Virus record (IMG/VR): IMGVR_UViG_3300032116_000002 | Source of the DNA: a virus | Lineage: Duplodnaviria > Caudoviricetes | Length of the DNA stretch: 64,000 nt | Strand: one strand, 5' to 3' | Shown: piece after piece, positions 20,062-33,935 of the stretch | Numbering within the stretch: position 1 is the first letter of the stretch | Layout of the letters: each line of letters opens with the position of its first letter | Notes under the pieces: model-generated | Told to the model about the DNA's origin: nothing | The model's input: only the letters and a program-made list of their open reading frames with translations | Database searches by the model: none | Translations under genes and position numbers: made by a program

Positions 20062-20065
20062 AAAC

Positions 20066-20139
20066 TGGTTGCGGGACCCGGAATCGAACCAGGAACTGGA
20101 GCTTATGAGACTCCCGAGATGCCGTTTCTCTATCCCGCG
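20066..20139 (-). tRNA. tRNA-Met(CAU), initiator-like
   Basis: C1:A72 mismatch, loop CTCATAA, CCA. Confidence 0.85.
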
Positions 20140-20146
20140 TCTGTTA

Positions 20147-20419
20147 TTAACCTGTTCTATGAATGATGTGAAAACCAAACTGAGTTTGCACAGGCTCACT
20201 TACTTGTCCTATTTCTAATGCGTAAGTAGCATCTTCAAAGGGCTTAACCATTTGACCTTTACCAAACAAACCTAAATCACCACCATTCTGTCCACTAGGA
20301 CATCTTGAAACTTGTTTTGCCATAGTTGCGAAATCAGCAGCTTGGCTTAGTAGTTGACTCTTTATCATGTTTGCTTGTTCTAAATTTTCTACTAAAATAT
20401 GACTTGCACGAACTTGCAT
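20147..20419 (-). CDS. ppiC: Parvulin-type peptidyl-prolyl isomerase
   Basis: ASHILV, SRCPSGQNGGDLG, QMVKPFE, TQFGFHII. Confidence 0.95.
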   Translation of the reverse strand: MQVRASHILVENLEQANMIKSQLLSQAADFATMAKQVSRCPSGQNGGDLGLFGKGQMVKPFEDATYALEIGQVSEPVQTQFGFHIIHRTG

Positions 20420-20440
20420 AATTTATCCTTGTATGTTAGT

Positions 20441-20638
20441 GTAAGGCTACTCGCTCCCACAAGCCCCTTACTGAGTTGTTGCCCTGTCCACTACATTTCT
20501 CTTTTGGTAAGGTGTAGTTCCAACCTACGACTTTTCTGGCACCCATGTAAGCGGGTTCTGAGGCAGATCGTATGCGCCCTGGCTTTCTGGTTTGCCAACC
20601 ACCCCCATTTCATAACGCAGATGGGACTACGGGATACT
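20441..20638 (-). ncRNA. Candidate structured RNA A (~200 nt), 5' of ppiC
   Basis: GC-rich non-coding stretch with several stems; shares a 17-nt core and covarying flanking hairpins with RNA B. Confidence 0.65.
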
Positions 20639-20716
20639 TGGAGCAACGGGTGAGATTCGAACTCACGGCTTTAGGGTTTTGCAGACCCTTGCATTGGGCC
20701 TCTCTGCCACCGTTGC
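20639..20716 (-). tRNA. tRNA-Cys(GCA)
   Basis: Loop CTGCAAA, U73, CCA. Confidence 0.93.
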
Positions 20717-20717
20717 A

Positions 20718-20912
20718 TTATTTCAATAGTTCAATCAACCTTTGCTTTGATTCTTCTGTCAAGAATAATTCACACTTTACCTGATCGTGTGGGAACTTTG
20801 CAACGTCCCAATGTGTATAGATTCTTAACACTTGAAAATTACTTGGGGTATCACAATTCTGTAACTCTGCATATGTTTTAAATCCATCATTCTCATTCAA
20901 CAAAATTTTCAT
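20718..20912 (-). CDS. Hypothetical protein
   Basis: SD AAGGA before ATG 20912; the longer track call runs into tRNA-Trp. Confidence 0.65.
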   Translation of the reverse strand: MKILLNENDGFKTYAELQNCDTPSNFQVLRIYTHWDVAKFPHDQVKCELFLTEESKQRLIELLK

Positions 20913-20930
20913 TGTAATATCCTTATTGTT

Positions 20931-21004
20931 TGGCGTCCCGGCAGGGATTTGAACCCCGACCAACGGTTTTGGAGACCGGTATGCTGCCGTTACACTACCG
21001 AGAC
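20931..21004 (-). tRNA. tRNA-Trp(CCA)
   Basis: Loop CTCCAAA, CCA. Confidence 0.93.
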
Positions 21005-21012
21005 ATTATACT

Positions 21013-21216
21013 TTACTTGTACTTACTAAGATACTCTTTTGGGTTTATTAAACCCTGTTCGATTTCATTTAATGCAGTTACTACAGGTTTATCTTTGGTG
21101 ACTATTTTAGGGGCATGTCCTGAACGTAATTCACGCACCCTAGCACTAGCGATTAAAACTAAATCATATAAGCCACCTGCTTTTTTTGCTGCTACTTCTG
21201 ATGTTCTACCTTTCAT
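21013..21216 (-). CDS. rpoZ: RNA polymerase omega subunit homologue
   Basis: YDLVLIASARVRELR and KPVVTALNEIEQGLI match omega conserved regions (E. coli FDLVLVAARRARQM / TTVIALREIEEGLI). Confidence 0.85.
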   Translation of the reverse strand: MKGRTSEVAAKKAGGLYDLVLIASARVRELRSGHAPKIVTKDKPVVTALNEIEQGLINPKEYLSKYK

Positions 21217-21235
21217 ATTACTTCCTTATGATGTT

Positions 21236-21309
21236 TGGTAGGGGATAACGGGGTCGAACCATTGACCTTCGCCTTGTAAGGGCGCTGCTCTACCACTGAG
21301 CTAATCCCC
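21236..21309 (-). tRNA. tRNA-Val(UAC)
   Basis: Loop CTTACAA, CCA. Confidence 0.95.
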
Positions 21310-21375
21310 TAGTATTTTTTATTAGGTACGAAATTCTCTATCGGTTGATAGATATTTAAGTGAAGTGATTAAAAA

Positions 21376-21573
21376 TTAATCTGAGACTTTTTCAATTCTT
21401 ACGGACAAATCTTCTTGGGTCAAGAATTTGCTTGGTAGAGTATTGTTATCTCTTTCAGCAATGATTCCGTCAGTGACAGACTTAGGATTATATCTTTCCT
21501 GACCTGTTAAGTCCATAGACTTGTAAAAAATTTCGTTAATGTAGACATTGATTTTCATATAACTATTTATCAC
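21376..21573 (-). CDS. Hypothetical protein
   Basis: ORF between tRNAs; start uncertain. Confidence 0.55.
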   Translation of the reverse strand: MINSYMKINVYINEIFYKSMDLTGQERYNPKSVTDGIIAERDNNTLPSKFLTQEDLSVRIEKVSD

Positions 21574-21585
21574 TTTACATTAAAA

Positions 21586-21668
21586 TGGTGCGCATAGAGG
21601 GACTCGAACCCCCACCCGTTGAGACCAGAACCTAAATCTGGCGCGTCTACCAATTTCGCCATATGCGC
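21586..21668 (-). tRNA. tRNA-Leu(UAG)
   Basis: Long variable arm, loop TTTAGGT, CCA. Confidence 0.95.
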
Positions 21669-21676
21669 ATAATACT

Positions 21677-21760
21677 TGGTGCCCAGAGCCGGACTCGAAC
21701 CGGCACGCCTTGCAGCGAGGGATTTTAAGTCCCTTGTGTCTACCATTTCACCACCTGGGC
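21677..21760 (-). tRNA. tRNA-Leu(UAA)
   Basis: Long variable arm, loop CTTAAAA, CCA. Confidence 0.95.
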
Positions 21761-21769
21761 ATTCTAACT

Positions 21770-21844
21770 TGGAGCGGGTGACAGGGATCGAACCTGCGAC
21801 GAACAGCTTGGAAGGCTGACACTCTACCACTGAGTTACACCCGC
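21770..21844 (-). tRNA. tRNA-Gly(UCC)
   Basis: Loop CTTCCAA, U73, CCA. Confidence 0.95.
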
Positions 21845-21853
21845 ATTACATCT

Positions 21854-21930
21854 TGGTGCCTCCGAAGGGACTCGAACCCCTAACCAACGGATTATGAGTC
21901 CGCTGCTCTGACCGATTGAGCTACAGAGGC
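21854..21930 (-). tRNA. tRNA(CAU), Ile2 or elongator Met
   Basis: Loop CTCATAA, CCA; identity not resolvable by eye. Confidence 0.85.
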
Positions 21931-21968
21931 AATTTAATTTGTTTTTAAAGAACGATTTCAATATGTGT

Positions 21969-21997
21969 ATTATACTGCTAAAAACTTTATTTGTCAA
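21969..21997 (-). promoter_or_regulatory. Sigma70-type promoter TTGACA-N17-TATAAT
   Basis: Perfect consensus just 5' of a five-tRNA block. Confidence 0.9.
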
Positions 21998-22000
21998 CAG

Positions 22001-22225
22001 TTAAACAAAATCATCTGACCCAAAATACTCTGCTACTTTTTCTCTTGCTTCTTTTCTATTCAGTGCAGGAATCTTTACTGTAGCAATATTATTTTTTATT
22101 TTGATGTTAAAAGGAACTATACCATTTGGTGTCCAGTTATCTTCAACACGAACCTTAACAGTAAATTCTTTAAGGTTCATTAATCTTTCAATTACTTGTT
22201 GCGTTAAATCTGATGGACTTTGCAT
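22001..22225 (-). CDS. Hypothetical protein
   Basis: ATG 22225 just after tRNA-Thr. Confidence 0.6.
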   Translation of the reverse strand: MQSPSDLTQQVIERLMNLKEFTVKVRVEDNWTPNGIVPFNIKIKNNIATVKIPALNRKEAREKVAEYFGSDDFV

Positions 22226-22237
22226 AGTTAAGTTAAA

Positions 22238-22312
22238 TGGTGCTGGCAGTAGGAATCGAACCCACAACCTACTGATTACAAATCAGTTGCTCTACCGTTG
22301 AGCCATGCCAGC
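22238..22312 (-). tRNA. tRNA-Thr(UGU)
   Basis: Loop TTTGTAA, CCA. Confidence 0.95.
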
Positions 22313-22504
22313 GTATTCTGTATTACTTAGTCCTACTTGCAATCGCACGTTGAATTTTCATACGATGCTTTGGTCTACATGTTTCAAGCATTTTGGTAAG
22401 TTGTTCTACATTAAGTGGACCTAATTTAGTCTTACCTGTTTTTGTTTTCATTGGATCACGTTTAAAATCTTTTTTTGCACTCATATATCCTCACATAAAA
22501 AACT

Positions 22505-22580
22505 TGGCTCCGGTGGTAGGGCACGATCCTACGACATACGGATTAACAGTCCGCCGTTCTACCAACTGAACTACACCGGA
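22505..22580 (-). tRNA. tRNA-Asn(GUU), atypical T-loop
   Basis: Loop CTGTTAA; T-loop ATCGTGC; CCA. Confidence 0.9.
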
Positions 22581-22609
22581 ATTGACTCTATTCTAACAGT
22601 TAAAATTCT

Positions 22610-22703
22610 TGGCGAAGAGTATTGGATTCGAACCAATGATCCGGCTTTTGACCAGATGCCTTCTTAGCAGGAAGGTGCCTTCGACCAACTCGGCCAACTC
22701 TCC
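22610..22703 (-). tRNA. tRNA-Ser(GCU)
   Basis: Long variable arm, loop CTGCTAA, G73, CCA. Confidence 0.95.
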
Positions 22704-22710
22704 TTAAAAC

Positions 22711-22953
22711 TTAATACTTCTCTGTAATCTTTTCTATTCTATCAAAACTTTGTTTCAATGTCAATTCATATCTAACCTGATTAAGGTTAATTGCATAAAT
22801 TATATAGACACCATAAACAAACAATGCACCTAATATAGTCCAGCCAATTTGCTCACTATCAAGTGTTAGTAAAAAAGCAATTAGCAAAGGAGCAACTGTT
22901 GCTAATACAACCATTATTAATGTTCTTTTTAGTGCAATTAATTTTTCATTCAT
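22711..22953 (-). CDS. Small two-TM membrane protein
   Basis: Two hydrophobic segments; follows promoter 22965-22993. Confidence 0.7.
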   Translation of the reverse strand: MNEKLIALKRTLIMVVLATVAPLLIAFLLTLDSEQIGWTILGALFVYGVYIIYAINLNQVRYELTLKQSFDRIEKITEKY

Positions 22954-22964
22954 AACAATTCCTT

Positions 22965-22993
22965 ATTGTATATCAAACAGGATTTATTGTCAA
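22965..22993 (-). promoter_or_regulatory. Sigma70-type promoter TTGACA-N17-TACAAT
   Basis: Spacer starts ATAAATCC. Confidence 0.85.
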
Positions 22994-23289
22994 CTGTTTT
23001 CTTTGTTGTCATCTTTGTAAAACTTTTCCTGTTTATGTTTCTTTTCTTGCAACGTTTCTTCACCGAAAAACTTTCGAGGATTACCGCACATATAACACTT
23101 TGGATCTCCGCAATTAAAAATCTTTGTTTTGTGGCTACGATGTGGTTGCGTCATAAACGGCATTTTGCTCATAGCAGAACTAAGCTTGTGATATCCATAA
23201 TTCTTAGCTAATTGTAACTGTCTTTTTATCTTTGTTGCTTTTTGATGGAGTCTCTCACTGTGTCTAATTTTATCTGATTCATCTGACAT
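22990..23289 (-). CDS. Basic hypothetical protein with CGDPKCYMC motif
   Basis: SD AGGAGGG. Confidence 0.7.
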   Translation of the reverse strand: MSDESDKIRHSERLHQKATKIKRQLQLAKNYGYHKLSSAMSKMPFMTQPHRSHKTKIFNCGDPKCYMCGNPRKFFGEETLQEKKHKQEKFYKDDNKENS

Positions 23290-23306
23290 ACACCCTCCTT
23301 AACATT

Positions 23307-23397
23307 TGGCGGAAGCGGACGGAGTCGAACCCTCAAGGGCCTATTAAGCCTCAACTGTTTTCAAGACAGGTACCATCGCCAATTGGTTTGCGCTTCC
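23307..23397 (-). tRNA. tRNA-Ser(UGA)
   Basis: Acceptor GGAAGCG/CGCTTCC, loop CTTGAAA, long variable arm, CCA. Confidence 0.92.
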
Positions 23398-23836
23398 TTT
23401 TGTTTCTTGATTTATAAGTTGGTAATTGGGAATCACAATTACTACAAACAAATCTTAAATTTTCTATCCTATTATCATTGTTTATGCCGTTTATGTGATC
23501 TAGTATTAATGTCATTGGCTTACCTTGCCACATTGGTTCTATACCACAAATACCACAAACATAATCAATTAATTTTTTTGCTTTTATCCTTGCTTTAACA
23601 CTATGTCTAGAATAACTAGAATTTTCACAAAACACAACATCATCTGGGTATTTTTGATCGTAATGTTCGGGTCTGCCTGTTTTTAATCCTAAGTTCCATG
23701 GTTTAGCACCTTTTTTTCTACCTGCATTTGGTGAATGAAAATGCTTTATTTTGTTAGGATTATTAACACACGACATTTCATGTGCTTTTAGTGAACCTTT
23801 GTTTTTAATTTCTCTTTGACAATATGTGCAATTCAT
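23351..23836 (-). CDS. HNH endonuclease with N-terminal zinc finger
   Basis: CGIC..LILDHINGINNDNRIENLRFVCSNCD; last 47 nt lie inside tRNA-Ser(UGA). Confidence 0.9.
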   Translation of the reverse strand: MNCTYCQREIKNKGSLKAHEMSCVNNPNKIKHFHSPNAGRKKGAKPWNLGLKTGRPEHYDQKYPDDVVFCENSSYSRHSVKARIKAKKLIDYVCGICGIEPMWQGKPMTLILDHINGINNDNRIENLRFVCSNCDSQLPTYKSRNKRKRKPIGDGTCLENS

Positions 23837-23894
23837 AATAGTATCCTCTACTATTATTTATGCTTTAACGCAAAAAATCGTCAAATAGCTGCGT

Positions 23895-24134
23895 TTAGCC
23901 ATTCTTCCTTTTTATTATCATTGCTACATATGTTCCTGTAAATGCACCTAATAATGCAGGTATCAACATCAAATTATCGTTAACAAAGCTTATTAGAGCT
24001 ATACTATATATTAACATAACGATTGATGCAAGTGTACTGGCAACCAAAGGCTTATCTTCGGCAATAGCTTTTATATAATAGGTATTCACTATATCGGTAA
24101 AAAATACAGCAAAAAATGTGATGATATATGACAT
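23895..24134 (-). CDS. Small three-TM membrane protein
   Basis: Hydrophobic throughout. Confidence 0.65.
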   Translation of the reverse strand: MSYIITFFAVFFTDIVNTYYIKAIAEDKPLVASTLASIVMLIYSIALISFVNDNLMLIPALLGAFTGTYVAMIIKRKNG

Positions 24135-24138
24135 TGGG

Positions 24139-24210
24139 TTAGTCCTGCAGGAATCGAACCTGCATCATTGCAATCGGAATGCAGTATCTTATCCATTAGA
24201 CGAAGGACTA
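24139..24210 (-). tRNA. tRNA-Arg(CCG), divergent
   Basis: Loop TTCCGAT, canonical T-arm, one anticodon-stem mismatch, no exact encoded CCA. Confidence 0.7.
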
Positions 24211-24214
24211 AAAT

Positions 24215-24288
24215 TGGAGCGGGTAGCGAGAATCGAACTCGCAAATAATCCTTGGCAAGGATTCAGGTTACCTTTACATCATACCCGC
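24215..24288 (-). tRNA. tRNA-Gly(GCC)
   Basis: Loop TTGCCAA, U73, CCA. Confidence 0.93.
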
Positions 24289-24296
24289 TTGAAACC

Positions 24297-26207
24297 TTAA
24301 TTAGTTTCTTTTACTTCTGCGTCTACTACATTAGGATCACCTTCTGCTTTTTGTGCGTTTGGATCACCTTCTGGCATTTCTTTATTGCGCTTTTCTGCTT
24401 CATATGTAATAGTTTTGCGATATAGTTCACCGAGTTCTTCAGTGGCTTTGTCCATATCTTCTTTACTATCACCTTTAGCAACTTCTTTGTATTTACTAAT
24501 ACTATCAAGCATTGAAGTTTTTTCTTCTTCAGGAATATAGCCTTCAAGATTTTCAATTTGCTTTTCAAGCATACCAATTTGATTATCCAAACTGTTACGT
24601 GCTTGTACAAGTTCTACAACCTTTTTATCTTCCTCAGCATTTAACTCAGCGTCTTTGACCATTTGTTCAATTTCTTGTTCAGATAATCCAGAACTTGCTT
24701 TGATAGTAATTTGCTTTTCTTTGTTAGTTTTCTTGTCAAGAGCCTTAACTGATAGTATACCATTTGCGTCAATGTCAAATGTTACTTCAATCTGTGGCAT
24801 GCCTCTTGGTGCAGGATCAATGCCCTCTAGTGTAAACTCACCTAGTCCTTTGTTACCTACAACAATTTCACGTTCACCTTGGAAAACTTTAATTGTAACA
24901 GCAGGCTGATTATCGTCTGCTGTACTAAAAGTTTGGCTTGCCTTTGTAGGAATCGTTGTATTCTTTTTGATAAGTTTAGTCATAACACCACCTAGTGTTT
25001 CAATACCTAAACTTAAAGGTGTAACATCCAACAACAGAACATCAGTGCGATCACCACCTAAGACTTGACCTTGAAGTGCAGCACCAACTGCAACTGCTTC
25101 ATCAGGGTTTACATCTTTACGAGGTGCCTTACCAAAAAACTTTTCTACTGCTTCTTGTACTCTTGGCATGCGAGTCATACCACCAACAAGAATCACTTCA
25201 TCAATATCACTGATACTTACACCAGCGTCTTTGATTGCAACTTCACAAGGCTTAATGCTACGTTGAATTAACTCTTCAACCAAACCTTCTAATTTAGCAC
25301 GTGTGATTTTAACGTTAAGATGCTTTGGTCCTGTTGCATCAGCAGTGATATAAGGTAAGCTTACATCAGTCTGTGTTGAACTTGATAGTTCAATCTTAGC
25401 ACGTTCTGCTGCATCTTTAAGTCTTTGTAATGCTAATACATCTTTAGTTAAATCTACACCACTTTCTTTTTTGAACTCATCAACTAGATGATCCATAATT
25501 CTTTGGTCAAAATCTTCACCACCTAAAAATGTATCACCGTTAGTTGATAATACTTCAAATTGTTTTTCACCTTCGACATTAGCAATATCAATAATACTAA
25601 TGTCAAATGTTCCACCACCTAAGTCATAGACAGCAATTTTTCGGTCCTTCTTGTCCTGTTTGTCTACACCGTAAGCTAATGCTGCCGCTGTAGGTTCGTT
25701 AATAATACGCAATACTTCCAGACCCGCAATGCGTCCTGCGTCTTTAGTTGCTTGTCTTTGACTATCATTAAAATATGCTGGAACTGTAATAACAGCCTTT
25801 GTGACTTCTTCACCTAAGAAATCTTCTGCTGTCTTTTTCATTTTACGCAAAACTTCAGCACTGATTTGTGGAGGTGCTAGTTTCTTGTCATTCACTTCTA
25901 CCCAAGCATCACCGTTATCTGCTTCTACAATCTTATATGGCATTAGATCGATATCTTTTTGGACTGCTTGTTCTTTGAATTTGCGCCCAATCAATCTCTT
26001 TGATGCATACACCGTGTTCTTTGGATTAGTAACAGCTTGACGCTTAGCTGGCGCGCCAACAACGATTTCACCGTCCTGCATGTAGGCGATAATGCTTGGG
26101 GTAGTTCTTGCACCCTCGCTGTTCTCTAATACTTTTGGATTTTTGCCATCTATGATAGCAACGCATGAATTGGTAGTACCTAGGTCAATACCTATAATCT
26201 TTGACAT
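24297..26207 (-). CDS. dnaK: Hsp70 chaperone DnaK
   Basis: [35 protein letters not shown], full length 636 aa. Confidence 0.98.
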
Positions 26208-26267
26208 GTTATTTCTCCTTTAATAAGCAAGATTACTTCAGTGCCCGATAGGCGCAACTGAGATATG

Positions 26268-26275
26268 TATTTATA
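26268..26275 (-). promoter_or_regulatory. T4-type late promoter TATAAATA upstream of dnaK
   Basis: Exact match to the T4 late consensus. Confidence 0.65.
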
Positions 26276-26305
26276 CATTATTTTTACTAAAAATACAAAT
26301 ATATT

Positions 26306-26380
26306 TGGTAGCAGGAGAGGGATTCGAACCCCCGATAGCTTCCGTATGAAGGAAGTGCATTACCTCTTTGCTATCCTGCC
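26306..26380 (-). tRNA. tRNA(CAU), third copy (Met or Ile2)
   Basis: Loop TTCATAC, G1:U72, CCA. Confidence 0.8.
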
Positions 26381-26430
26381 ATATACTTTCGTACATTTAT
26401 TTGTTACAAGTAACAAATATATAACTTTAT

Positions 26431-26628
26431 ATGGAAATAGAATTTATTTCATTATACAAACTCGGAGTAGGATGCATCCTAGTGAGGTATGAAGATATTA
26501 TAACAATGGAGTACACTCCACTAGGATATACTCGTATTGAATTTGGGTACGGCGAACATCTTATTGTTGAAGAAGATATAATTTGTATAATGAAAAAAAT
26601 TCAAGCAGCTAAAACGCTAAGTGAATAA
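26431..26628 (+). CDS. Hypothetical protein, antisense to the array
   Basis: Fills the gap between two tRNAs; no motif recognised. Confidence 0.4.
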   Translation: MEIEFISLYKLGVGCILVRYEDIITMEYTPLGYTRIEFGYGEHLIVEEDIICIMKKIQAAKTLSE

Positions 26629-26704
26629 TGGTGCCGCCTGTTGGTTACGCTCCAACCTATCCGGCTCTTCAAACCGGCGCTTTCACTAGATTAGCTTAAG
26701 CGGC
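26629..26704 (-). tRNA. tRNA-Phe(GAA), atypical T-loop
   Basis: Loop TTGAAGA; T-loop AGCGTAA; CCA. Confidence 0.85.
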
Positions 26705-26706
26705 AT

Positions 26707-26783
26707 TGGGGTGAAGGACGGGACTCGAACCCGCAACCACTGGATCCACAATCCAGGGCTCTACCAATTGAGCTACCAACACC
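26707..26783 (-). tRNA. tRNA-His(GUG)
   Basis: G-1, C73, loop TTGTGGA, two U:U pairs in acceptor stem. Confidence 0.9.
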
Positions 26784-26990
26784 ATTGATTATGTTGCACG
26801 CCATTCTACACGACCATACTGGTCTATATGTGCAATACTTTGCATACGTTTGACTTCAACATATTCACGTTTCTCAGTAATAATTTCACCACCACGTTGT
26901 ACTAATTCATTTACTTTAATCTTTGCTACAGAATTAATAGGTTCAAATTTTTTAAACTTGATCTCCATTTTACACCTCCGATTTATAAAT

Positions 26991-27092
26991 ATGTAGTGTA
27001 GCGGTTAATCTAGCACACAAGGATGCCAACGTAAAGAGTTTTCTAGATTTCCTCTATACCTAGTCGAAGGCCAAATTGTCGCTACACTACAT
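26991..27092 (+). ncRNA. Candidate small structured RNA E closed by a 13-bp stem
   Basis: ATGTAGTGTAGCG...CGCTACACTACAT directly after TATAAATA (26984-26991); inner AATCTAG/CTAGATT stem. Confidence 0.5.
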
Positions 27093-27665
27093 CACAGGTC
27101 CATTACCATTTTTAAAACCAACAGTACCGCCTTCTTCTACAATACGTTTGATAACTTCTTCAAACAATATAGGGCGATAATCTGTTTGTTCTACACAAAC
27201 ACAATGATATCTTGGGTCGATTTTATATTCACCGAAAATTTCTGCTTTAACTCTCTGATAATGCAGATGTCCATGAATATTAGTACCGAACCTTGCGAGA
27301 CTATCTGTATGAATAGGAATATGACTTAATATCATTCCATTCATTACATGATAGCCACGAATATCTCTAAAGTATTCAGTGTATTCTTCTAATCTAAAAA
27401 TGTCGTGGTTACCCTTAATAAGAACCTTATCTCCATTAAGCCTTGCTAGAGTTTTAAGTGCTTTACGATTAATCACAACATCACCGAGATGGTAAACTTT
27501 ATCGTTTGGACGAACGGTTTCGTTCCAACGTTTTACCATTTCTTCATCCATCTCATCTGGGTCATCCCAGGGTCTGAGTTTAGTTCCATCATCACGAAGG
27601 AACTTACAAACGCCAGCATGACCAAAATGCGTATCAGAAACCAAAAAGTTTGCTGGCATAGTCAC
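27087..27665 (-). CDS. Calcineurin-like metallophosphoesterase
   Basis: SDTHFGH, LGD, GNHD, HGH motifs. Confidence 0.92.
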   Translation of the reverse strand: MTMPANFLVSDTHFGHAGVCKFLRDDGTKLRPWDDPDEMDEEMVKRWNETVRPNDKVYHLGDVVINRKALKTLARLNGDKVLIKGNHDIFRLEEYTEYFRDIRGYHVMNGMILSHIPIHTDSLARFGTNIHGHLHYQRVKAEIFGEYKIDPRYHCVCVEQTDYRPILFEEVIKRIVEEGGTVGFKNGNGPVM

Positions 27666-27680
27666 TCCTTAAATAAAAAA

Positions 27681-27709
27681 ATTATAACACAAAAACAATT
27701 TACTGTCAA
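27681..27709 (-). promoter_or_regulatory. Sigma70-type promoter TTGACA-N17-TATAAT
   Basis: Perfect consensus. Confidence 0.9.
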
Positions 27710-27710
27710 T

Positions 27711-27787
27711 TGGCACCCCAGGAAGGATTCGAACCTCCGACTCCTGCGTTCGTAGCACAGTACTCTAGTCCACTGAGTTACTGGGGC
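27711..27787 (-). tRNA. tRNA-Arg(ACG)
   Basis: Loop CTACGAA, CCA. Confidence 0.95.
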
Positions 27788-27796
27788 ATATATTGA

Positions 27797-27872
27797 TGGT
27801 GGGGGCTATGGGAATCGAACCCATTTAATCTACTATGTCATAGTAGCGACTAGCCATTCATACCTAGCCCCT
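27797..27872 (-). tRNA. Atypical tRNA-Val(GAC)-like element
   Basis: Good T-arm, anticodon stem and CCA, but A1:C72 mismatch, weak D-stem and loop ATGACAT. Confidence 0.55.
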
Positions 27873-27946
27873 CGCCGACCCGGGGTTTCCCTCCTTGCAG
27901 TCGGTGAAGTATTTATTGCCCAACACCATTAAAAATAAATACAAAA

Positions 27947-28648
27947 ATGCATATACATATATTTGGTCACAGCATTTGTGCCAGAGCAGGTTGGAAACAT
28001 GACAAACCCGAACCTGATCTATTTGTTGATAGATTAATTAAAAAATATAATATACCTAAATCAAACTATCACGCTGTTAATCAAGGCAGTGAAGAAAGAA
28101 TATTATATTTTTTAAAAAAAGTTAAAAAGATTGACTTGGCGATAATCTTCCATGGCACTCCGCAACATTTCTTTTGTCCTGCGTGGTCTAGTGATTTTCA
28201 TTTAGTAGACCAAGACAAATATTGGGAAAATGATTACCCCAGAGATTTGTATTACATGCCTGAAATACTAAAAGATAAACCAAAAGAACCTAATCCTGAT
28301 ATAATATTAGATAAGAAAAATTATCAAAAATCATATGAAAATTTTGTAAAACACTTTTATACACCTGAATTAAATCGCAATAGACACTATGGCGCATTAA
28401 TTCAAATTGATCAATATTTAAATCACAAAAAAATACATGCAATTCATTGTGTACTAAAAAACACATTACCAACTTGGTTCGAGTTTAGTAATGGTATAGT
28501 AGACAATGAACTTGCAGAGTTGCAAAAACAAAACAGTAAGTTCTATACCGGACCTCAAAACAGCGGCAATTTAATCAGTGAAGAAGGTAATATCTACATT
28601 GCTAACAAACTTACTGATTACATAGAACAATTAACTGGCTGGGGATGA
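27947..28648 (+). CDS. Hypothetical protein, possibly SGNH-like
   Basis: HIFGHSICA N-terminus; ATAAATA just upstream; 3' end overlaps tRNA-Gln on the opposite strand. Confidence 0.7.
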   Translation: MHIHIFGHSICARAGWKHDKPEPDLFVDRLIKKYNIPKSNYHAVNQGSEERILYFLKKVKKIDLAIIFHGTPQHFFCPAWSSDFHLVDQDKYWENDYPRDLYYMPEILKDKPKEPNPDIILDKKNYQKSYENFVKHFYTPELNRNRHYGALIQIDQYLNHKKIHAIHCVLKNTLPTWFEFSNGIVDNELAELQKQNSKFYTGPQNSGNLISEEGNIYIANKLTDYIEQLTGWG

Positions 28649-28711
28649 TGGACTCGAACCACCGAATGTCGGAATCAAAATCCGATGCCTTACCAACTTG
28701 GCGAATCCCCA
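28636..28711 (-). tRNA. tRNA-Gln(UUG)
   Basis: U1:A72, loop TTTTGAT, CCA. Confidence 0.95.
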
Positions 28712-28880
28712 ATTAACTTGGTATTACTTTTGGTATATACGGTACATTTCTAGGACCATGTCTTTGCTCAAATAACATACGTGCTTCCTGTAAATCTTTA
28801 GCATAGACACGATCTTTAATATCACCTTGCGGTGTTCTTACTGTAGTTTCATACATTGGCATAACAAACTCCTTAGAGGT

Positions 28881-28908
28881 AAGAAAAGGTAGCTAAGCTA
28901 CCCTTTTC
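28881..28908 (-). terminator. Intrinsic terminator after pqqA
   Basis: GAAAAGGGTAGC-TTA-GCTACCTTTTCTT. Confidence 0.75.
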
Positions 28909-28932
28909 ATTATGTTGATTGAAAATCACTGA

Positions 28933-29004
28933 TTAGCGATTTGCAATGTACATAGTGATTTCAAAACCAAAACGCATATCAGTTGCACTAGGTGTTGTCC
29001 ACAT
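28933..29004 (-). CDS. pqqA: PQQ precursor peptide (23 aa, not in ORF track)
   Basis: MWTTPSATDMRFGFEITMYIANR with ExxxY core; SD AAAGGAGAG; own terminator. Confidence 0.92.
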   Translation of the reverse strand: MWTTPSATDMRFGFEITMYIANR

Positions 29005-29212
29005 GTTACTCTCCTTTGAATTTAAAATACATGTACTGCACATGTATTTAAGAGATTGTACAACACAAAAATGGTACTGTCTATACGCATAGTATTGAAC
29101 GATAGCTAGTGAAAATCATTAAACTTACCATATAGAAACACATTCCTGGATTGTCGTAAAACCCTCCATAGCCCCGAGCGCCATTATTTTTATATTCGAA
29201 TGTGTTTTTATA

Positions 29213-29288
29213 TGGTAGGGGCACAGAGATTCGAACTCTGGACACACGGATTAAAAGTCCGCTGCTCTACCTACTGAGCTATACCCCC
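29213..29288 (-). tRNA. tRNA-Lys(UUU)
   Basis: Loop CTTTTAA, CCA. Confidence 0.95.
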
Positions 29289-29583
29289 ATCATCTTTCGA
29301 GGTTTGTCGCTTTCCTTATTCATCTTTATCACCTTTATTTCTCATGCTTCTTGTTTTAGCACTTCTTTCTGAGGATTTGACTGCCTCACGAATGAAATGT
29401 CTTTCACGTTCCTTATTAAAACTAAGGATCGCAATAGCCTTTTCTGCTTTCTTTATTTTTACTGCCTTTGGATCGTAACCCATATTAATCTCCTATTTAA
29501 AATTTCTATCAATTAATGCTAACAACCAAATAACTCCGATAATAACTGCCATTGCCCCATTGTAGTTCTCCTTATAGTTATAT

Positions 29584-29667
29584 TGGTGGGGTGTACTGGG
29601 ATCGAACCAGTCATGTCAAAGACGGCGGATTTACAGTCCACTGCATCACCATTGATGCTTCCACCCC
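29584..29667 (-). tRNA. tRNA-Tyr(GUA)
   Basis: Long variable arm, loop CTGTAAA, CCA. Confidence 0.95.
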
Positions 29668-29669
29668 AT

Positions 29670-29875
29670 TTAATGCTCTGACAGACCTCGGAGGTAATTA
29701 TACCGCATCAAGCACCGAGTAGTCTCAGTACCATCACACACGGCCTCCACCCTCTCCACGACAGGTCCCGTTCTCGCATTGCCAGCGCACTTTCGGTTTA
29801 AAGTGTACCACCCGTAGTTGTCATACTACTTCTCATCGTGCGGGTCACACTATCTGCTGACTAAGCAGAACGTTC
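29670..29875 (-). ncRNA. Candidate structured RNA C (~205 nt) between tRNA-Asp and tRNA-Tyr
   Basis: Nested stems TCTGCT/AGCAGA, ACCCG/CGGGT, GTAGT/ACTAC, CACTTT/AAAGTG, GGAGG/CCTCC, CTGAG/CTCGG. Confidence 0.6.
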
Positions 29876-29952
29876 TGGCGACACCAAGGGGGTTCGAACC
29901 CCTGACCTCCGCCGTGACAGGGCGGCATTCTAACCAGCTGAACTATGGTGCC
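29876..29952 (-). tRNA. tRNA-Asp(GUC)
   Basis: Loop CTGTCAC, G73, CCA. Confidence 0.95.
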
Positions 29953-30103
29953 ATTGTTCTACACTCTGCTACTAACTTACTTTTTACAATTGTTAATCTT
30001 TTATTCCAAACATACTCTGCATCTCTACATTCTTTTTCTGTGGCATACTTTGAGTATTGGGTATAGTTGTCAGGAAACTGTAACCAAAATACTAAAATCC
30101 AAG

Positions 30104-30568
30104 TCATCTCACACCCAAATAATGTTTGTTTACATAGCTTTGTATTGCTTGATGACTTACATTACTGATATGCACGCCTGGAGCAACATTACGCCTACCT
30201 GAACTATCAAAGTAATTTCTTGTTTCTATACCATAGACACCATAGTTAACCTGTGCTGTATGATATGCACCAATTGTAACAATAGAGTAGGGCTTATGTT
30301 TTACGTTTTTTAAAACATGTTTAATGCTTTCTGCACCCTTACTATACCCATATAACTGATACTGTTTATTATTTCTATTAATAAACTTTACTGCTAAATG
30401 TGCTTGATTCCAACTATATGTCATTGCACATGCATTCTGCTTTTTTGCATATTGATTAAAGGCACGACTATCAAATAAATCATTGATACCTTTGAAACCA
30501 ATAACGAACTTGTCACAGGCAAAACTGTTCTGTGTTACAAGTAATAAAATAAAAAATAATGTTCTCAT
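30104..30568 (-). CDS. Exported protein, possible minimal alpha/beta hydrolase
   Basis: Signal peptide; GYSKG nucleophile-elbow-like motif. Confidence 0.6.
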   Translation of the reverse strand: MRTLFFILLLVTQNSFACDKFVIGFKGINDLFDSRAFNQYAKKQNACAMTYSWNQAHLAVKFINRNNKQYQLYGYSKGAESIKHVLKNVKHKPYSIVTIGAYHTAQVNYGVYGIETRNYFDSSGRRNVAPGVHISNVSHQAIQSYVNKHYLGVR

Positions 30569-31118
30569 ATTAGTTTTGTAGCCTATACTATATGCCTAAC
30601 TCAACAGCTTTACACGTGTTTACTGTTTATTGTTTCGGTTACATAACGCCTGCGCCAGCCTCTGTGCTTACAGGCTACAAAATTAATATGCTTAGGCCAC
30701 GCTTTTCCACGGTCGCCCCCAAGCTGGAGTTGTTGCCCTGTCCGAACACTAAAGGACCTTTGCCGCGTAGTGTCCACGCTGCTATGTTGTCTGAAACACC
30801 GGAGACACCACATCGAAATGCAGAGTCTATGTTTCGCTAAAGGTGCCATAGCCACCTGGACTTTATCGTATTACCAAACGCTACTTTCAGGAAAGTAGTA
30901 ACCGGAATCTTGCTTCTTTGATTCGGCGAGCTGTCCTACTTCAAGCAGGCTCACACTGGTCGCCCTGAGGTGAAGCACCTCAGTTACTCTAGATTAATAT
31001 TAATGCTAACAAGGACAGGCCTATTACATGATACCGAAGGCATTACTGTATCAAACCCTTGCTAAACTCTTTTCAGAGACAGAACGCACATTTTCTGTTT
31101 TGTTTTTAATCTTCATTT
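30566..31118 (-). ncRNA. Candidate large structured RNA B (~500 nt)
   Basis: Own sigma70 promoter, elevated GC, many hairpins, no credible long ORF, 17-nt core shared with RNA A. Confidence 0.65.
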
Positions 31119-31124
31119 GCCGCT

Positions 31125-31153
31125 AGTATAACAGCAAATCGATTTATTGTCAA
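31125..31153 (-). promoter_or_regulatory. Sigma70-type promoter TTGACA-N17-TATACT
   Basis: Spacer starts ATAAATCG; faces RNA B. Confidence 0.85.
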
Positions 31154-31157
31154 ACTT

Positions 31158-31234
31158 TGGTGCCTGCTCTTGGAATCGAACCAAGCACCCCCGCGTTATC
31201 AACACGGTGCTCTAACCGAATGAGCTAAGCAGGC
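31158..31234 (-). tRNA. tRNA-Ile(GAU)
   Basis: Loop TTGATAA, CCA. Confidence 0.95.
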
Positions 31235-31238
31235 AAAC

Positions 31239-31314
31239 TGGCACACCCAACCGGATTCGAACCGGTGTATTCACCGTGAAAGGGTGATGTCCTAGGCCTC
31301 TAGACGATGGGTGC
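31239..31314 (-). tRNA. tRNA-Glu(UUC)
   Basis: Loop CTTTCAC, G73, CCA. Confidence 0.95.
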
Positions 31315-31348
31315 GTAAAACTGTTAAAGAACTAAAAATAATTCAGAC

Positions 31349-31377
31349 ATTTTATCTCGTTTTGGATTTAATGTCAA
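31349..31377 (-). promoter_or_regulatory. Sigma70-type promoter TTGACA-N17-TAAAAT
   Basis: Read directly; faces tRNA-Glu/Ile. Confidence 0.8.
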
Positions 31378-31386
31378 GTTGTTGTT

Positions 31387-31462
31387 TGGTGGAGGTGACA
31401 GGGATCGAACCTGCGACCTACGGCTTGCAAAGCCGCCGCTCTCCCAACTGAGCTACACCCCC
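31387..31462 (-). tRNA. tRNA-Ala(UGC)
   Basis: G3:U70, loop TTTGCAA, CCA. Confidence 0.96.
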
Positions 31463-31472
31463 AAATTAAATC

Positions 31473-31549
31473 TGGCCTGACCAGAGGGATTCGAACCCCC
31501 GACTTACTGCTTAGAAGGCAGTTACTCTATCCAACTGAGTTATGGTCAG
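31473..31549 (-). tRNA. tRNA-Arg(UCU)
   Basis: Loop CTTCTAA, CCA. Confidence 0.95.
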
Positions 31550-31558
31550 AAAGTAATG

Positions 31559-31587
31559 ATTGTACTATAACTGCGATTATTTGTCAA
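31559..31587 (-). promoter_or_regulatory. Sigma70-type promoter TTGACA-N17-TACAAT
   Basis: Immediately 5' of the first tRNA of the array. Confidence 0.85.
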
Positions 31588-32489
31588 GCCTGAAGAATTG
31601 TATATTTGTCAATTTTCATTTTATCAATTTGTTCCAATATTTTTGTTGCTAAAATTGCATTAGTTTCAGCGGTTAAGTGTATTGGACTTACTCCCCAACG
31701 GTGTCGAGGATCCATATAAACAAATTGATCGTCAAGTTCTACTACTGGTAAATCGCTTCCATGCTTTCTTTTAAAATGCTGAACCATAACATCTAACCAA
31801 CGTAATACATAAGGTCCATTTTTAGGATCATTCATGAATCTGTAGTTGTGATAGAATGGTATGTTTTCTTTTAGATTTATTGTGTACGGAACAATTTTTT
31901 GCTTGCTAATGTAACACTTTGATGCTAGTTTTGTTTTGACTAAAATAATTCTGTCCTGAAACAGTTGTTTCATCTGTACAGCAAAATCAACTAACAACTC
32001 CTTTGTTCTACCCATTACTTCTTCGGTATCAAAATCAAAATAACATTGTGTTTTACTAATAATATCTTTGTTTACCCAATCCACATCTAACAATTTGTGA
32101 AACTGGGGAACCAAACTAAAACATTCATTTTTAGTAATAAACCTTGTGTAAAGTTCATTGCTAAAATTGATCACCATAATGTCTGTAGAAACTACATTTT
32201 CTTTTAGAAATTTATAGTAAGGAAATTTTGTTAATTCAACATAAGCCTGATCATACAAAAAACTTTCATGAGGATGCTCAGGGTATTGCTCTTTCATATA
32301 GGTAAACATACGCTCAGCCATACTACTAGGCTGAGCGTACAGTGACATTAAACTTGTACCATGTGGAGGATACTTGTTTATTAAAACATTCCCACCTGCT
32401 AGGTCATATCTTCTAATTACACTTGGACTATGTAATGAATCCCATAAATCACATGCACCAAAGTGAAAAATTCTAGGTCTTAAAATCAT
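31584..32489 (-). CDS. Hypothetical protein (301 aa)
   Basis: Long ORF coupled to the HNH gene; no family recognised. Confidence 0.75.
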   Translation of the reverse strand: MILRPRIFHFGACDLWDSLHSPSVIRRYDLAGGNVLINKYPPHGTSLMSLYAQPSSMAERMFTYMKEQYPEHPHESFLYDQAYVELTKFPYYKFLKENVVSTDIMVINFSNELYTRFITKNECFSLVPQFHKLLDVDWVNKDIISKTQCYFDFDTEEVMGRTKELLVDFAVQMKQLFQDRIILVKTKLASKCYISKQKIVPYTINLKENIPFYHNYRFMNDPKNGPYVLRWLDVMVQHFKRKHGSDLPVVELDDQFVYMDPRHRWGVSPIHLTAETNAILATKILEQIDKMKIDKYTILQA

Positions 32490-33043
32490 GTAAGAATTCT
32501 ACTATGTTTCGGAACCCCGCTTAATAAGTATTCCATTTGATCCGCAAGAATGTTTCTATTTTGCAAAATCATACTTTCAAAGTGATTAGGTTCATAAGGC
32601 ACATAAAGTAGTTCCATTCTTGCTTCTTTAAGTGTCTTATTATCTTTTTTGTTATTACACGAAACACATGCAGTAACAACATTCATCCATGTATTTACTC
32701 CACCTCTACTTTTGGGTAGGATGTGATCTCGGCTTAAATGATTACTGTTAGAGAAATGCCCTCCGCAGTATGCACATACATGACGGTCACGTCCAAACAA
32801 TGTTTTGTTTGTCAATGCAACTTTGCCGTGTTTAGCCGGATCGAACCCATGTCCTTTGATTGCAATGATACTAGGAGTTTCAATGTAACTCAAACGTCCG
32901 TCATTCTGAATTCCACCATGAAACTTTGCAACAACTTCACCTAGCGACCATGCAACCATATCTTTTGCAAAATATGTGATTGCATTTTCGTGCGAAATCC
33001 ATTGTCTAGGGATTCCGCCGATGTCCAACGCTAGTACCGACAT
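32486..33043 (-). CDS. HNH endonuclease (McrA-like)
   Basis: LFGRDRHVCAYCG..SRDHILPKSRGG...WMNVVTACVSCNNKK. Confidence 0.92.
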   Translation of the reverse strand: MSVLALDIGGIPRQWISHENAITYFAKDMVAWSLGEVVAKFHGGIQNDGRLSYIETPSIIAIKGHGFDPAKHGKVALTNKTLFGRDRHVCAYCGGHFSNSNHLSRDHILPKSRGGVNTWMNVVTACVSCNNKKDNKTLKEARMELLYVPYEPNHFESMILQNRNILADQMEYLLSGVPKHSRILT

Positions 33044-33144
33044 GATTTTCTCCTTAAAAGTTAAATGTATTTAGACACTTTCAAATATAGTACTCATCCT
33101 CTTACATTCGGAGTGTAATGATGTTTCCTCTATGTCAAAAAGTG

Positions 33145-33322
33145 TATGGTAAAGCAAACTGATCCTATGTCATCGGTCATAGGGTTACACATGTTCATCA
33201 ATTTGCTTTATCATTCCCGTTTTACTCTGCTGTTACCGCCAGCACTTTCATCAGGGGCTCCGCCCGTTCGCAGCATGTTTACAGTGCGCTGCTGAGACCT
33301 CGTTTCTCTCACACCTAAACGT
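33145..33322 (-). ncRNA. Candidate structured RNA D (~180 nt)
   Basis: Follows a TTGACA-N18-TAGAAT promoter; 14-bp terminal stem with a G:U pair on the minus strand plus inner hairpins. Confidence 0.55.
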
Positions 33323-33328
33323 GTTAAG

Positions 33329-33358
33329 ATTCTAACACGGTATTGTCTTTATTGTCAA
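33329..33358 (-). promoter_or_regulatory. Sigma70-type promoter TTGACA-N18-TAGAAT
   Basis: Read directly. Confidence 0.7.
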
Positions 33359-33490
33359 CCTTTTCGCTAAAACCATAGAATTCTCTAATCCTTTCAAACT
33401 TTTCAGTTATCAATTTGTTAAGTTGTTCTTCTGATAATATATGGTTGTCAATATTATCTTTTTGATAATTCATTTTTTTCTCCATATAAC

Positions 33491-33561
33491 AAAAAACCCT
33501 GGGACTTTTTCAGTACCAGGGTTTAGATAATCTTACTATGAAACTTTACTTACCTAAACCC
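33491..33561 (-). promoter_or_regulatory. Attenuator: mutually exclusive terminator and antiterminator
   Basis: Terminator AAACCCUGG(33524-33516)/CCAGGGUUU(33502-33494)+U-run; GGGUUUAGGU(33561-33552) can pair with AUCUAAACCC(33528-33519). Confidence 0.75.
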
Positions 33562-33674
33562 CCCAAGCCCTCAATAATATTGCGATCACTTGTTAAGGCA
33601 TAAAACCCTACAGGTGACCAAACCATTAGTGTTGGCTGATTAAAGGATATATGTTTACAAGTTAAGTTTCTCAT
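33546..33674 (-). CDS. Putative leader peptide (42 aa) containing all 20 amino acids
   Basis: MRNLTCKHISFNQPTLMVWSPVGFYALTSDRNIIEGLGGLGK; ATG at 33674 lies downstream of the promoter, the track start at 33731 does not. Confidence 0.7.
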   Translation of the reverse strand: MRNLTCKHISFNQPTLMVWSPVGFYALTSDRNIIEGLGGLGK

Positions 33675-33702
33675 AGTAAATCTATTTAGTCCTGATGATA
33701 AT

Positions 33703-33731
33703 ATTGTACTATTTATCGCATTAAAATGCAA
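33703..33731 (-). promoter_or_regulatory. Sigma70-type promoter TTGCAT-N17-TACAAT with embedded late-type ATAAATA
   Basis: CTTGCATTTTAATGCGATAAATAGTACAAT on the minus strand. Confidence 0.7.
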
Positions 33732-33746
33732 GTTTTCATTTGCCCA

Positions 33747-33935
33747 TTAATTCTTTTTAAAACTAGAACACATCATCTCAAAATCCTGTTGTCTGGACTG
33801 GATTTGACTATATGACGCTTTTGGGTTTCGTTCTCTGTACGAAGTTTTTTCTTTTTCAATACATTCGTTGTATGGATCGGAGCATCCCGCCAATGACATT
33901 AAAATTAACAATCCAATTAATATTGCTTGTAACAT
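33747..33935 (-). CDS. Small lipoprotein
   Basis: Hydrophobic signal and lipobox LAG-C. Confidence 0.75.
   Translation of the reverse strand: MLQAILIGLLILMSLAGCSDPYNECIEKEKTSYRERNPKASYSQIQSRQQDFEMMCSSFKKN

Follow-up and report, generated by a model that had tools for sequence, protein, structure and literature searches.

The stretch examined here, which we call the window, is the 64,000-nt sequence of IMG/VR virus record IMGVR_UViG_3300032116_000002 (Duplodnaviria; Caudoviricetes) and derives from a large phage found solely in freshwater metagenomes. It encodes DnaK, ribonucleotide reductase, a radical S-adenosylmethionine (SAM) cluster and 24-27 tRNAs, and the largest contigs bearing the 301-aa protein that is encoded beside the element discussed here reach 360-380 kb. 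The element is a leader cassette ahead of the tRNA array, made up of a promoter, a 5' untranslated region (UTR), a short open reading frame (ORF) and an intrinsic terminator, and all of its coordinates lie on the minus strand, running from 33731 down to 33491. A preliminary description, prepared from the sequence alone, had read the cassette as an attenuator whose leader peptide contains all 20 amino acids. Its parts, together with the segments that can pair with one another, are as follows.

33703-33731, minus strand: leader promoter, with -35 TTGCAT at 33731-33726, a 17-nt spacer and -10 TACAAT at 33708-33703
33675-33693, minus strand: 5' UTR motif AGGACTAAATAGATTTACT, 19 nt, abutting the ATG and common to three clades
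33546-33674, minus strand: leader ORF, 42 codons, with ATG at 33674 and TAA at 33548-33546
33663-33685, minus strand: segment A, the bases around the start codon (-11 to +12), able to pair with the post-stop spacer
33549-33572, minus strand: segment B, the last 8 codons of the ORF, predicted by RNAduplex as the 5' strand of the antiterminator
33523-33547, minus strand: segment C, the spacer between stop codon and terminator, which forms the antiterminator loop and can pair with segment A
33512-33531, minus strand: segment D, the terminator's 5' arm with its 5' flank, common to the antiterminator (with B) and the terminator (with segment E, the 3' arm)
33491-33524, minus strand: intrinsic terminator, with stem AAACCCUGG-U-ACU / AGU-C-CCAGGGUUU, loop GAAAA and a U-run at 33496-33491

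The promoter named in the preliminary description, TTGCAT-N17-TACAAT with ATAAATA embedded in the spacer, is present on the minus strand. It does not appear in the list from a consensus scan because its -35 element matches at only 3/6 positions, and relatives have at the homologous place TTGACA-17-TATAAT (many of them perfect) or TTGCAT-17-TATAAT, of the sigma70 type. The motif AGGACTAAATAGATTTACT is non-coding, as a 1-nt indel between clades shows, and the three clades that share it were located through the neighbouring protein, independently of the motif. An upstream in-frame start, TTG at 33731 (61 aa), was rejected, as it overlaps the -35 element and the upstream frame is not conserved (1-nt indel between clades). 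The sole core resembling a Shine-Dalgarno (SD) sequence, AGGA, lies inside AGGACTAAATAGATTTACT and 14 nt before the ATG, close to the spacing of about 15 nt that had been raised as a caveat. The ORF has the 42 codons originally assigned to it, with 13 different residues among the first 14 and all 20 amino acids by residue 35. Outside the window's clade the leader transcript begins ~60-75 nt further upstream (e.g. at 3040-3110 in locus L017 and 2340-2400 in locus L087), and these longer 5' UTRs hold a conserved box (CAUGAAUUGAGAAAAGG) and a small hairpin ahead of the AACCAGGACUAAAUA motif; in L017, the promoter and box occur in two tandem copies.

The leader peptide and its relatives

Among GenBank phages no relative of the window was found by DNA or by the neighbouring 301-aa protein, and a DnaK search of the same phages retrieved distant matches only. 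A short-DNA search returned chance matches only, and IMG/VR queried with the 301-aa protein and with the exact terminator gave no match. Syntenic loci fetched via the 301-aa protein fall into three clades, at 91%, ~50% and 33% identity, and each of these has a small ORF in the equivalent place with AGGACTAAATA before it and a homologous terminator after it. A pattern consisting of the untranslated motif and the ATG only pulled more than 118 loci from IMG/VR. The family set comprises 135 related loci, which yield 87 distinct DNA variants and 75 distinct peptides (40-70 aa), and 85 distinct coding sequences (CDS) were used for the frame and codon tests. Peptide identity to the window peptide falls to ~20%, and the loci are not one recent clone.

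Taken by itself, the composition of the window peptide is within chance after multiple testing. All 20 amino acids occur in 21 of the 27,184 35-aa segments read from the six frames of the window, these 21 fall in 8 of the 677 stop-free segments of at least 35 aa, and the uniform-usage probability of finding all 20 in 35 aa is 0.0098. The composition is far above chance in the family comparison only: all 20 amino acids are present in 70 of the 75 distinct peptides, and the remaining five have 19, lacking His, Val or Cys. An additional member retrieved by a profile search has all 20 as well. When peptides of the same lengths were drawn from the pooled family composition, 2.9/75 were expected to be complete, and when the consensus residues were held fixed and the rest redrawn, 12.7/75 were. 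When each cluster was reduced to one sequence, the joint null probability came to 1e-8 to 1e-10 for clusters at 50-60% identity and to ~4e-4 for the four clusters at 40% identity. By comparison, long ORFs of the same loci yield a complete set in only 1.7% of their 45-aa segments. The claim that the composition exceeds chance, as made in the preliminary description, consequently fails for the window alone and stands for the family.

The residues that are rare in these peptides are kept in number and not in place. Cys is single-copy in 73/75 peptides, spread over 9 alignment columns, and the same applies to Trp (72/75, 6 columns), His (65/75, 13 columns) and Asp (59/75, 16 columns). Trp and Asp are absent from no peptide, Cys and His from one each, and lineages without the usual Cys (position 6) or the usual Trp have one elsewhere. 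This reappearance of rare residues at other positions points to selection on their presence, not their position. The preliminary description had suggested looking ahead of the tRNA arrays of related phages for short ORFs with all 20 amino acids but poor sequence conservation, and this is what the family consists of, with a mean column identity of 32% in the peptide alignment.

Codon choice shows a similar breadth. For the amino acids with split codon boxes, the numbers of CDS containing both boxes, and the numbers expected from the phages' own synonymous usage (n=85), are:

Leu, both codon boxes: observed 80/85, expected 53.7
Arg, both codon boxes: observed 73/85, expected 50.1
Ser, both codon boxes: observed 85/85, expected 72.7
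Gly, both codon boxes: observed 79/85, expected 70.9
Ile, ATA and ATY: observed 75/85, expected 52.8

In the window, the leader codons cover every anticodon class of the array except CCG (codon CGG), which agrees with the earlier count in which CGG alone was missing. The window leader also has a TAT codon, and its array is without a detected tRNA-Tyr.

Several sequence features suggest that the leader ORF is translated. Its frame is open in 85/85 distinct CDS, the other two frames averaging 4.3-4.4 stops; differences between close pairs (n=164) number 497, 496 and 845 at codon positions 1, 2 and 3; and indels in the family preserve the reading frame. UAA is the stop codon of 77/85 leaders. In locus L112, the 42-tRNA array includes an ARAGORN tRNA with anticodon UUA, which would read the UAA stop, and given the 77/85 leaders ending in UAA such a suppressor could disturb the leader's own termination.

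Selection on the encoded peptide raises the alternative that the cassette is a stand-alone small gene for a functional micro-protein or modified-peptide precursor, with the array merely lying downstream and the RNA helices described below serving mRNA stability or translational autoregulation. The conserved residues, the synonymous variation and the excess of third-position changes do indicate selection on the peptide. Nevertheless, searches against Pfam and PHROGs assigned the peptide to no family (three MSP matches at E = 0.03 are noise), a profile search of 1.84 billion representatives retrieved only three family members and two unrelated tandem-repeat proteins, and AlphaFold2 with a 74-sequence alignment predicted no secondary structure and no confident fold (predicted local distance difference test score, pLDDT, 54.9). 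The peptide thus lacks the fixed core, family match and confident fold by which a ribosomally synthesized and post-translationally modified peptide (RiPP) or PqqA-like precursor, or a folded micro-protein, would be recognised. In addition, the rare residues move while their copy number stays at one, unlike what would be seen in a folded or enzyme-recognised peptide.

Terminator, antiterminator and a third helix

The terminator proposed in the preliminary description, CCCUGG/CCAGGG with six U, was recovered at -17 kcal/mol with an AAA/UUU extension of the stem (z = -4.3), its energy spanning -13 to -17 kcal/mol. In the window, the stop codon is separated by 14 nt from the segment AUUAUCUAAACCCUGGUACU (33531-33512), which is followed by the GAAAA loop, AGUCCCAGGG and six U (33496-33491). 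A homologous hairpin with a U-run is found in 86 of the 87 variants. The exception, the IMG/VR contig L101, has a deletion that removes the terminator and fuses the leader ORF downstream into a 70-aa ORF, and it is in effect a natural terminator-less mutant of the cassette.

The 10-bp helix between the end of the ORF and the terminator arm that had been noted earlier, in which GGGUUUAGGU pairs with AUCUAAACCC, proved to be part of a longer duplex: RNAduplex extends it to 33572-33549 with 33531-33512, at -18.6 kcal/mol, stronger than the terminator. To locate the best partner of the terminator's 5' arm and flank, a 14-nt window was slid along each leader, and in every clade the best partner of the arm is the 3' end of the ORF, the mean duplex energy being -11.5 kcal/mol at 9 nt before the stop versus -2 to -5 elsewhere (one clade has a second partner position ~30 nt before the stop). 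The full B:D duplexes range from -12 to -28 kcal/mol and, with few exceptions, are stronger than the terminator. The last 5-14 codons supply the antiterminator's 5' strand, which in most clades also takes in the stop codon.

This pairing is maintained by compensatory change. Covarying B:D pairs among clades include GGGGCUUC:GAAGCCCC, GGGGUUUC:GAAACCCC, GGUUUAGGUAAG:UUAUCUAAACC and GGAAUAAC:UUUAUUC, and cognate B and D segments bind better than non-cognate ones (z = -9.9; 0/5000 permutations as good). On two alignments, 86.5% and 84.7% of the cells of the helix are paired, versus 29-65% when the partner is slid. In the larger alignment two-sided changes occur in four pairs and 31 cells, a level reached in 0/500 shuffles. 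The covarying terminator and antiterminator that the preliminary description had proposed to look for in relatives are accordingly both there. The C-terminal peptides vary by clade (PGTR, GSFIEG, EGLGGLGK, EGLS) and the underlying RNA always complements the terminator arm; that the RNA remains complementary, with covariation, while the C termini differ argues against the cassette being a gene for a micro-protein.

The same observations bear on another explanation, in which the terminator does no more than insulate the tRNA region from the peroxiredoxin operon upstream, and the ORF, its composition and the helices are non-regulatory. G-rich Gly codons near a C-rich terminator arm can pair accidentally, and in the window alone the composition is within chance (8/677 segments), as this explanation would have it. 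On the other side stand the results obtained across the family on composition, codon boxes, covariation and position (described below), together with an ORF that is open in 85/85 variants against ~4.4 stops in the other frames. We regard this explanation as very improbable, the comparative data having come close to refuting it.

A third conserved helix, missing from the preliminary description, joins the bases around the ATG (A) to the post-stop spacer (C). The naked window leader folds at -66.4 kcal/mol (z = -5.5) with both the A:C helix and the terminator formed, and the A:C duplex alone has -14.7 kcal/mol (z = -4.2). The midpoint of the spacer's best partner lies between -10 and +10 nt relative to the ATG in 51/86 variants, cognate A and C segments beat non-cognate ones (z = -8.8), and the helix is the RNAalifold consensus helix of 43 leaders. 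It covaries between clades as CUAUGAUG...AACUUGU with ACAAGUU...CAUCAUA, and in another clade as UUUACUAUGAG-AAACUU with AAGUUU-CAUAGUAA; it is weak or absent in the GSFIEG clade. Since the spacer is also the loop of the antiterminator, the A:C and B:D helices should be mutually exclusive.

When transcripts were folded before the terminator was complete, the 5' arm was sequestered in five of eight leaders, with a probability of being free, P(free), of 0.00-0.27, and in the same five a ribosome footprint placed over the last 8-14 codons raised P(free) to 0.19-0.45. As far as modelled geometry goes, the footprint overlaps the switch strand, and the position of a ribosome could select the fold. 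Searches with the Rfam 15 covariance models brought only tRNAs to gathering score in the window, with no T-box and no known leader, and nothing meaningful at E <= 10 between 33000 and 33800.

The downstream tRNA region and the proposed role of the leader

The leader holds a fixed position relative to tRNA genes. Across the 135 loci, there are 0 tRNA genes in 715 kb upstream of the leader versus 1190 in 505 kb downstream, all 1190 of them on the leader's strand, and a tRNA lies within 2.2 kb of the leader in 67 of the 68 loci with enough sequence (median 726 nt). Clades differ widely in the order and content of their arrays, which reach 40-42 tRNAs and the full set of 20 amino acids, and the leader remains at the head of the array despite this reshuffling. 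The codons of the leader also match the product of the array, with all 20 amino acids in the one and tRNAs for 19-20 amino acids in the other, and without codon runs. In the window, the following features lie beyond the terminator.

33324-33485, minus strand: small ORF, the first gene after the terminator, 53 aa from the first ATG
33095-33358, minus strand: promoter TTGACA-18-TAGAAT (33358-33329) and structured RNA
31584-33043, minus strand: genes for an HNH endonuclease (185 aa) and a DUF6270-like protein (301 aa), between leader and array
19985-31587, minus strand: tRNA array, with 24 ARAGORN tRNAs plus Phe(gaa), Ser(tga) and a weak Val(gac)-like one, for 19 amino acids
26632-26704, 23310-23397 and 27800-27872, minus strand: the tRNAs missed by default ARAGORN, namely Phe(gaa), Ser(tga) and a weak GAC (Val) loop

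The small ORF more likely starts at ATG 33473, which gives 49 aa with GGAG 5 nt upstream and agrees with the JGI call of 49 aa. No promoter lies between the terminator and this ORF in the window's clade, and it would thus be the first gated gene there. Homologues in several clades share the motif L..EQ...LI..KF.R, match no family, and in other clades stand behind their own promoter. In all clades inspected, the interval from the leader terminator to the first tRNA contains a conserved structured RNA of ~200-270 nt (also at 3370-3640 in L017 and ~2830-3040 in L087); it has the shared motifs GRAACGAG and AAUGGGCGG and matches no Rfam family. In many clades, a TTGACA promoter and a ~50-aa ORF accompany the structured RNA between terminator and tRNAs.

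The HNH and DUF6270-like genes occupy this place in the window's clade and its two nearest clades, most other clades having their first tRNA within ~500-750 nt, and the pair looks like a mobile insertion that has distanced the leader from the array. The first tRNA of the window, at 31549, is 1.94 kb past the leader, and two consensus-like promoters (33358-33329 and the array-proximal 31587-31559) lie between them, in line with the caveat of about 1.9 kb and internal sigma70 promoters that had been attached to the first description. The array itself is interrupted by protein genes, including a full DnaK gene (24297-26207), and no tRNA-Tyr was found in it.

Inside the array, on the minus strand, a 23-codon ORF (28932-29003; starting MWTTPS and ending YIANR) with its own promoter, an AAAGGAG ribosome-binding site and a terminator was considered as a second leader. 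It was rejected as such owing to its resemblance to PqqA, the pyrroloquinoline quinone (PQQ) precursor, of which we take it to be a close likeness.

The presence in the same window of this PqqA-like peptide gene and of a 16-kb radical-SAM cluster would suit the explanation of the cassette as a gene for a micro-protein or modified peptide, as would the many clades with a promoter right behind the terminator, in which the cassette looks self-contained. Against it, the gene holds the head position of reshuffled arrays. Weighing this with the peptide and covariation data above, we judge that explanation to be distinctly improbable.

We instead favour, as reasonably probable, the reading of the cassette as a ribosome-dependent attenuator at the head of the phage tRNA region, with a leader that samples the whole code and with slow decoding leading to read-through; that the cassette is an attenuator, by itself, we hold with greater confidence. 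The logic of 2:3 versus 3:4 pairing invoked in the preliminary description gains support from the composition of the family, the terminator, the covarying antiterminator and the position of the leader. The sign and kinetics of the switch, the sensing of every codon and the physiological trigger are inferred. A sigma70-type promoter would give rise to a short transcript. In it, the terminator's 5' arm and flank (D) would be paired with the end of the ORF (B), meaning its last codons and, in most other clades, the stop codon too. This B:D antiterminator would form earlier than the D:E terminator and be more stable. A ribosome at the end of the ORF while the terminator is being synthesised would melt B:D, whereupon D:E would form and transcription would stop at the U-run. 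If the ribosome lagged at a slowly decoded codon, B:D would persist and the polymerase would enter the small ORF, the structured RNA and the tRNA genes. The A:C helix, which dominates in untranslated RNA, probably restores termination and closes the start codon when there is no translation. The cassette probably serves to gauge the decoding capacity of the cell as a whole.

A more specific version of the attenuator holds that the leader is a complete "test sentence", in which shortage or cleavage of any tRNA would delay the ribosome and cause read-through into the array and the RNA gene. Host anticodon nucleases or phage-induced decay of host tRNAs might be triggers, the phage would make good the lost tRNAs when needed, an inducible counter-defence, and selection would hold each rare amino acid at exactly one codon, which keeps the sensor short. 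We put this version forward tentatively and with more doubt than belief. More generally, the supply of tRNAs or of amino acids may be what regulates the switch, and anticodon nucleases may have a part in it.

The same hardware could instead sense the general performance of ribosomes and not the supply of individual charged tRNAs, responding to host shut-off, ribosome-targeting defences or toxins, antibiotics or lost coupling of transcription and translation, and an ORF with all 20 amino acids would then only sample normal decoding in a representative way. Several known leaders respond to stalling in general (PA5471.1/armZ, bmrB, vmlR, erm). The geometry of the cassette reports only the timely arrival of a ribosome at the end of the ORF, and single copies fit an integrated gauge of speed better than a specific sensor. 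A general gauge, however, would not require selection to retain each rare amino acid and the two boxes of the split families. In the family, split boxes are over-represented, and Cys, Trp or His residues that were lost turn up again at other positions. The leader's unvarying association with tRNA arrays also suggests that tRNA supply is what is regulated. We consider sensing of this general kind unlikely.

RNA from nature is available for the locus. In two metatranscriptome runs from different studies, contigs match the window exactly at 33491-33659 and 33499-33661, the first ending at the last U of the terminator and the second 8 nt short of it; DNA runs continue across the terminator. A 360-nt RNA contig of a relative, from a third study, bridges the terminator, and an RNA contig from a fourth lies inside the downstream ORF. 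The missing cover of the RNA runs at 33662-33800 is uninformative. Together, these contigs give a weak hint of terminated leader RNA with some read-through.

We would like to note a number of points that weigh against an attenuator of tRNA genes with whole-code sensing. The RNA contigs are a weak hint and cannot give transcript ends, strand or level. Members of the family are homologous and not independent, and family statistics overstate significance for this reason. The AGGA core lies 14 nt from the ATG, while the window's other genes have their SD-like cores at 4-10 nt. Runs of regulatory codons are typical of classical leaders; here an amino acid mostly has one codon only, and a single slow codon may give only a weak signal. 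The L050 leader is without Cys despite a tRNA-Cys in its array, and lack of an amino acid in the leader does not in that case mirror lack of the tRNA. The peptides have conserved motifs (W, F-x-P-x-Y-P-T-S-I-R-G and D-R-x-x-E-G-L) with synonymous variation, and the peptide or nascent chain may hence matter too.

The arrangement of downstream promoters is a further difficulty. The 1.9 kb from terminator to tRNA hold the 49-aa ORF, the RNA gene with its promoter, the HNH gene and the DUF6270 gene; the array has several strong consensus promoters of its own (perfect or near-perfect TTGACA-17-TATAAT at 27709, 21997, 31587, 31377, 31153, 22993 and 22764); and in most other clades a TTGACA promoter stands directly behind the terminator.

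The folding of full-length transcripts at equilibrium is another, as the terminator wins in most states. The full-length window leader keeps its terminator (P = 0.81-0.99) at any single-ribosome position, and in other members the switch at equilibrium reacts chiefly when a ribosome sits within the first ~11 codons. We do not take thermodynamics alone to explain the switch, since full-length folding with one footprint failed to produce any-codon sensing. With the terminator kept at equilibrium, sensing at any codon needs kinetic or queueing arguments, and it would rest on kinetics, that is, on the order of synthesis and on the lag of the ribosome behind the polymerase.

Comparison with known leaders

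The cassette is ~240 nt long and has more than 80 natural variants with built-in compensatory mutations, which suits it to reporter or in vitro transcription-translation assays, and it could be a compact biosensor of decoding capacity. If the reading is true, a natural ORF selected for composition over sequence would be a rare and easily testable constraint. It would bear on the open question of why large phages hold near-complete tRNA sets and when these are used, and expression on demand would link tRNA arrays to host defences that target tRNA and to phage-induced host shut-off.

Attenuation by leader peptides also exists in forms that respond to drugs or nucleotides. In the erm/cat leaders, Pseudomonas PA5471.1-armZ, Bacillus bmrB-bmrCD and vmlR, a short ORF remodels an RNA switch, in some by transcription attenuation, and these leaders respond to ribosome drugs and control resistance genes. 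We know of no erm/cat, armZ, bmrCD or vmlR leader with a complete amino-acid set or preceding tRNA genes. In pyrBI and pyrE, as proposed for the phage, the output depends on the distance of the lead ribosome to RNA polymerase at the terminator. The sign is opposite, in that a close ribosome blocks the terminator in pyrBI and would permit it in the phage leader, and the pyr signal is UTP-dependent pausing of polymerase and not decoding. T-box leaders have an aim in common with the phage leader, the adjustment of the translation apparatus to tRNA charging via transcription attenuation. A T-box, however, binds one uncharged tRNA directly, without a ribosome and with a conserved RNA fold, and the phage leader matches no T-box.

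The closest counterparts are the amino-acid operon leaders of Enterobacteria (trpL, hisL, leuL, thrL, pheL and the multivalent ilvGMEDA), with which the mechanism class is already textbook (trp, his, ilv leaders). These likewise have a short leader ORF followed by an intrinsic terminator and an antiterminator sharing the terminator's 5' arm, the position of the ribosome chooses the fold, and full translation leads to termination, as proposed here. The 1:2 helix of trp, which favours termination when the leader is untranslated, is resembled by the A:C helix of the phage. The two differ in that amino-acid operon leaders have runs of regulatory codons and control biosynthetic enzymes, while the phage leader has all 20 amino acids, the rare ones exactly once, and precedes a structured RNA and a tRNA array. 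Unlike in those leaders, the 5' strand of the phage antiterminator is formed by the ORF's own last codons (with the stop codon in most clades), and the phage anti-antiterminator is a helix between the start codon and the post-stop spacer. They have no sequence homology to the phage leader, and no Rfam leader family matches it. A literature search retrieved no account of such control for phage tRNA genes, and the phage tRNA target, the complete single-copy set of amino acids and the start-to-spacer helix, which we did not find described in the literature, appear to be new. If the proposal is true, leader-peptide attenuation extends from amino-acid operons to tRNA supply, and to viruses.

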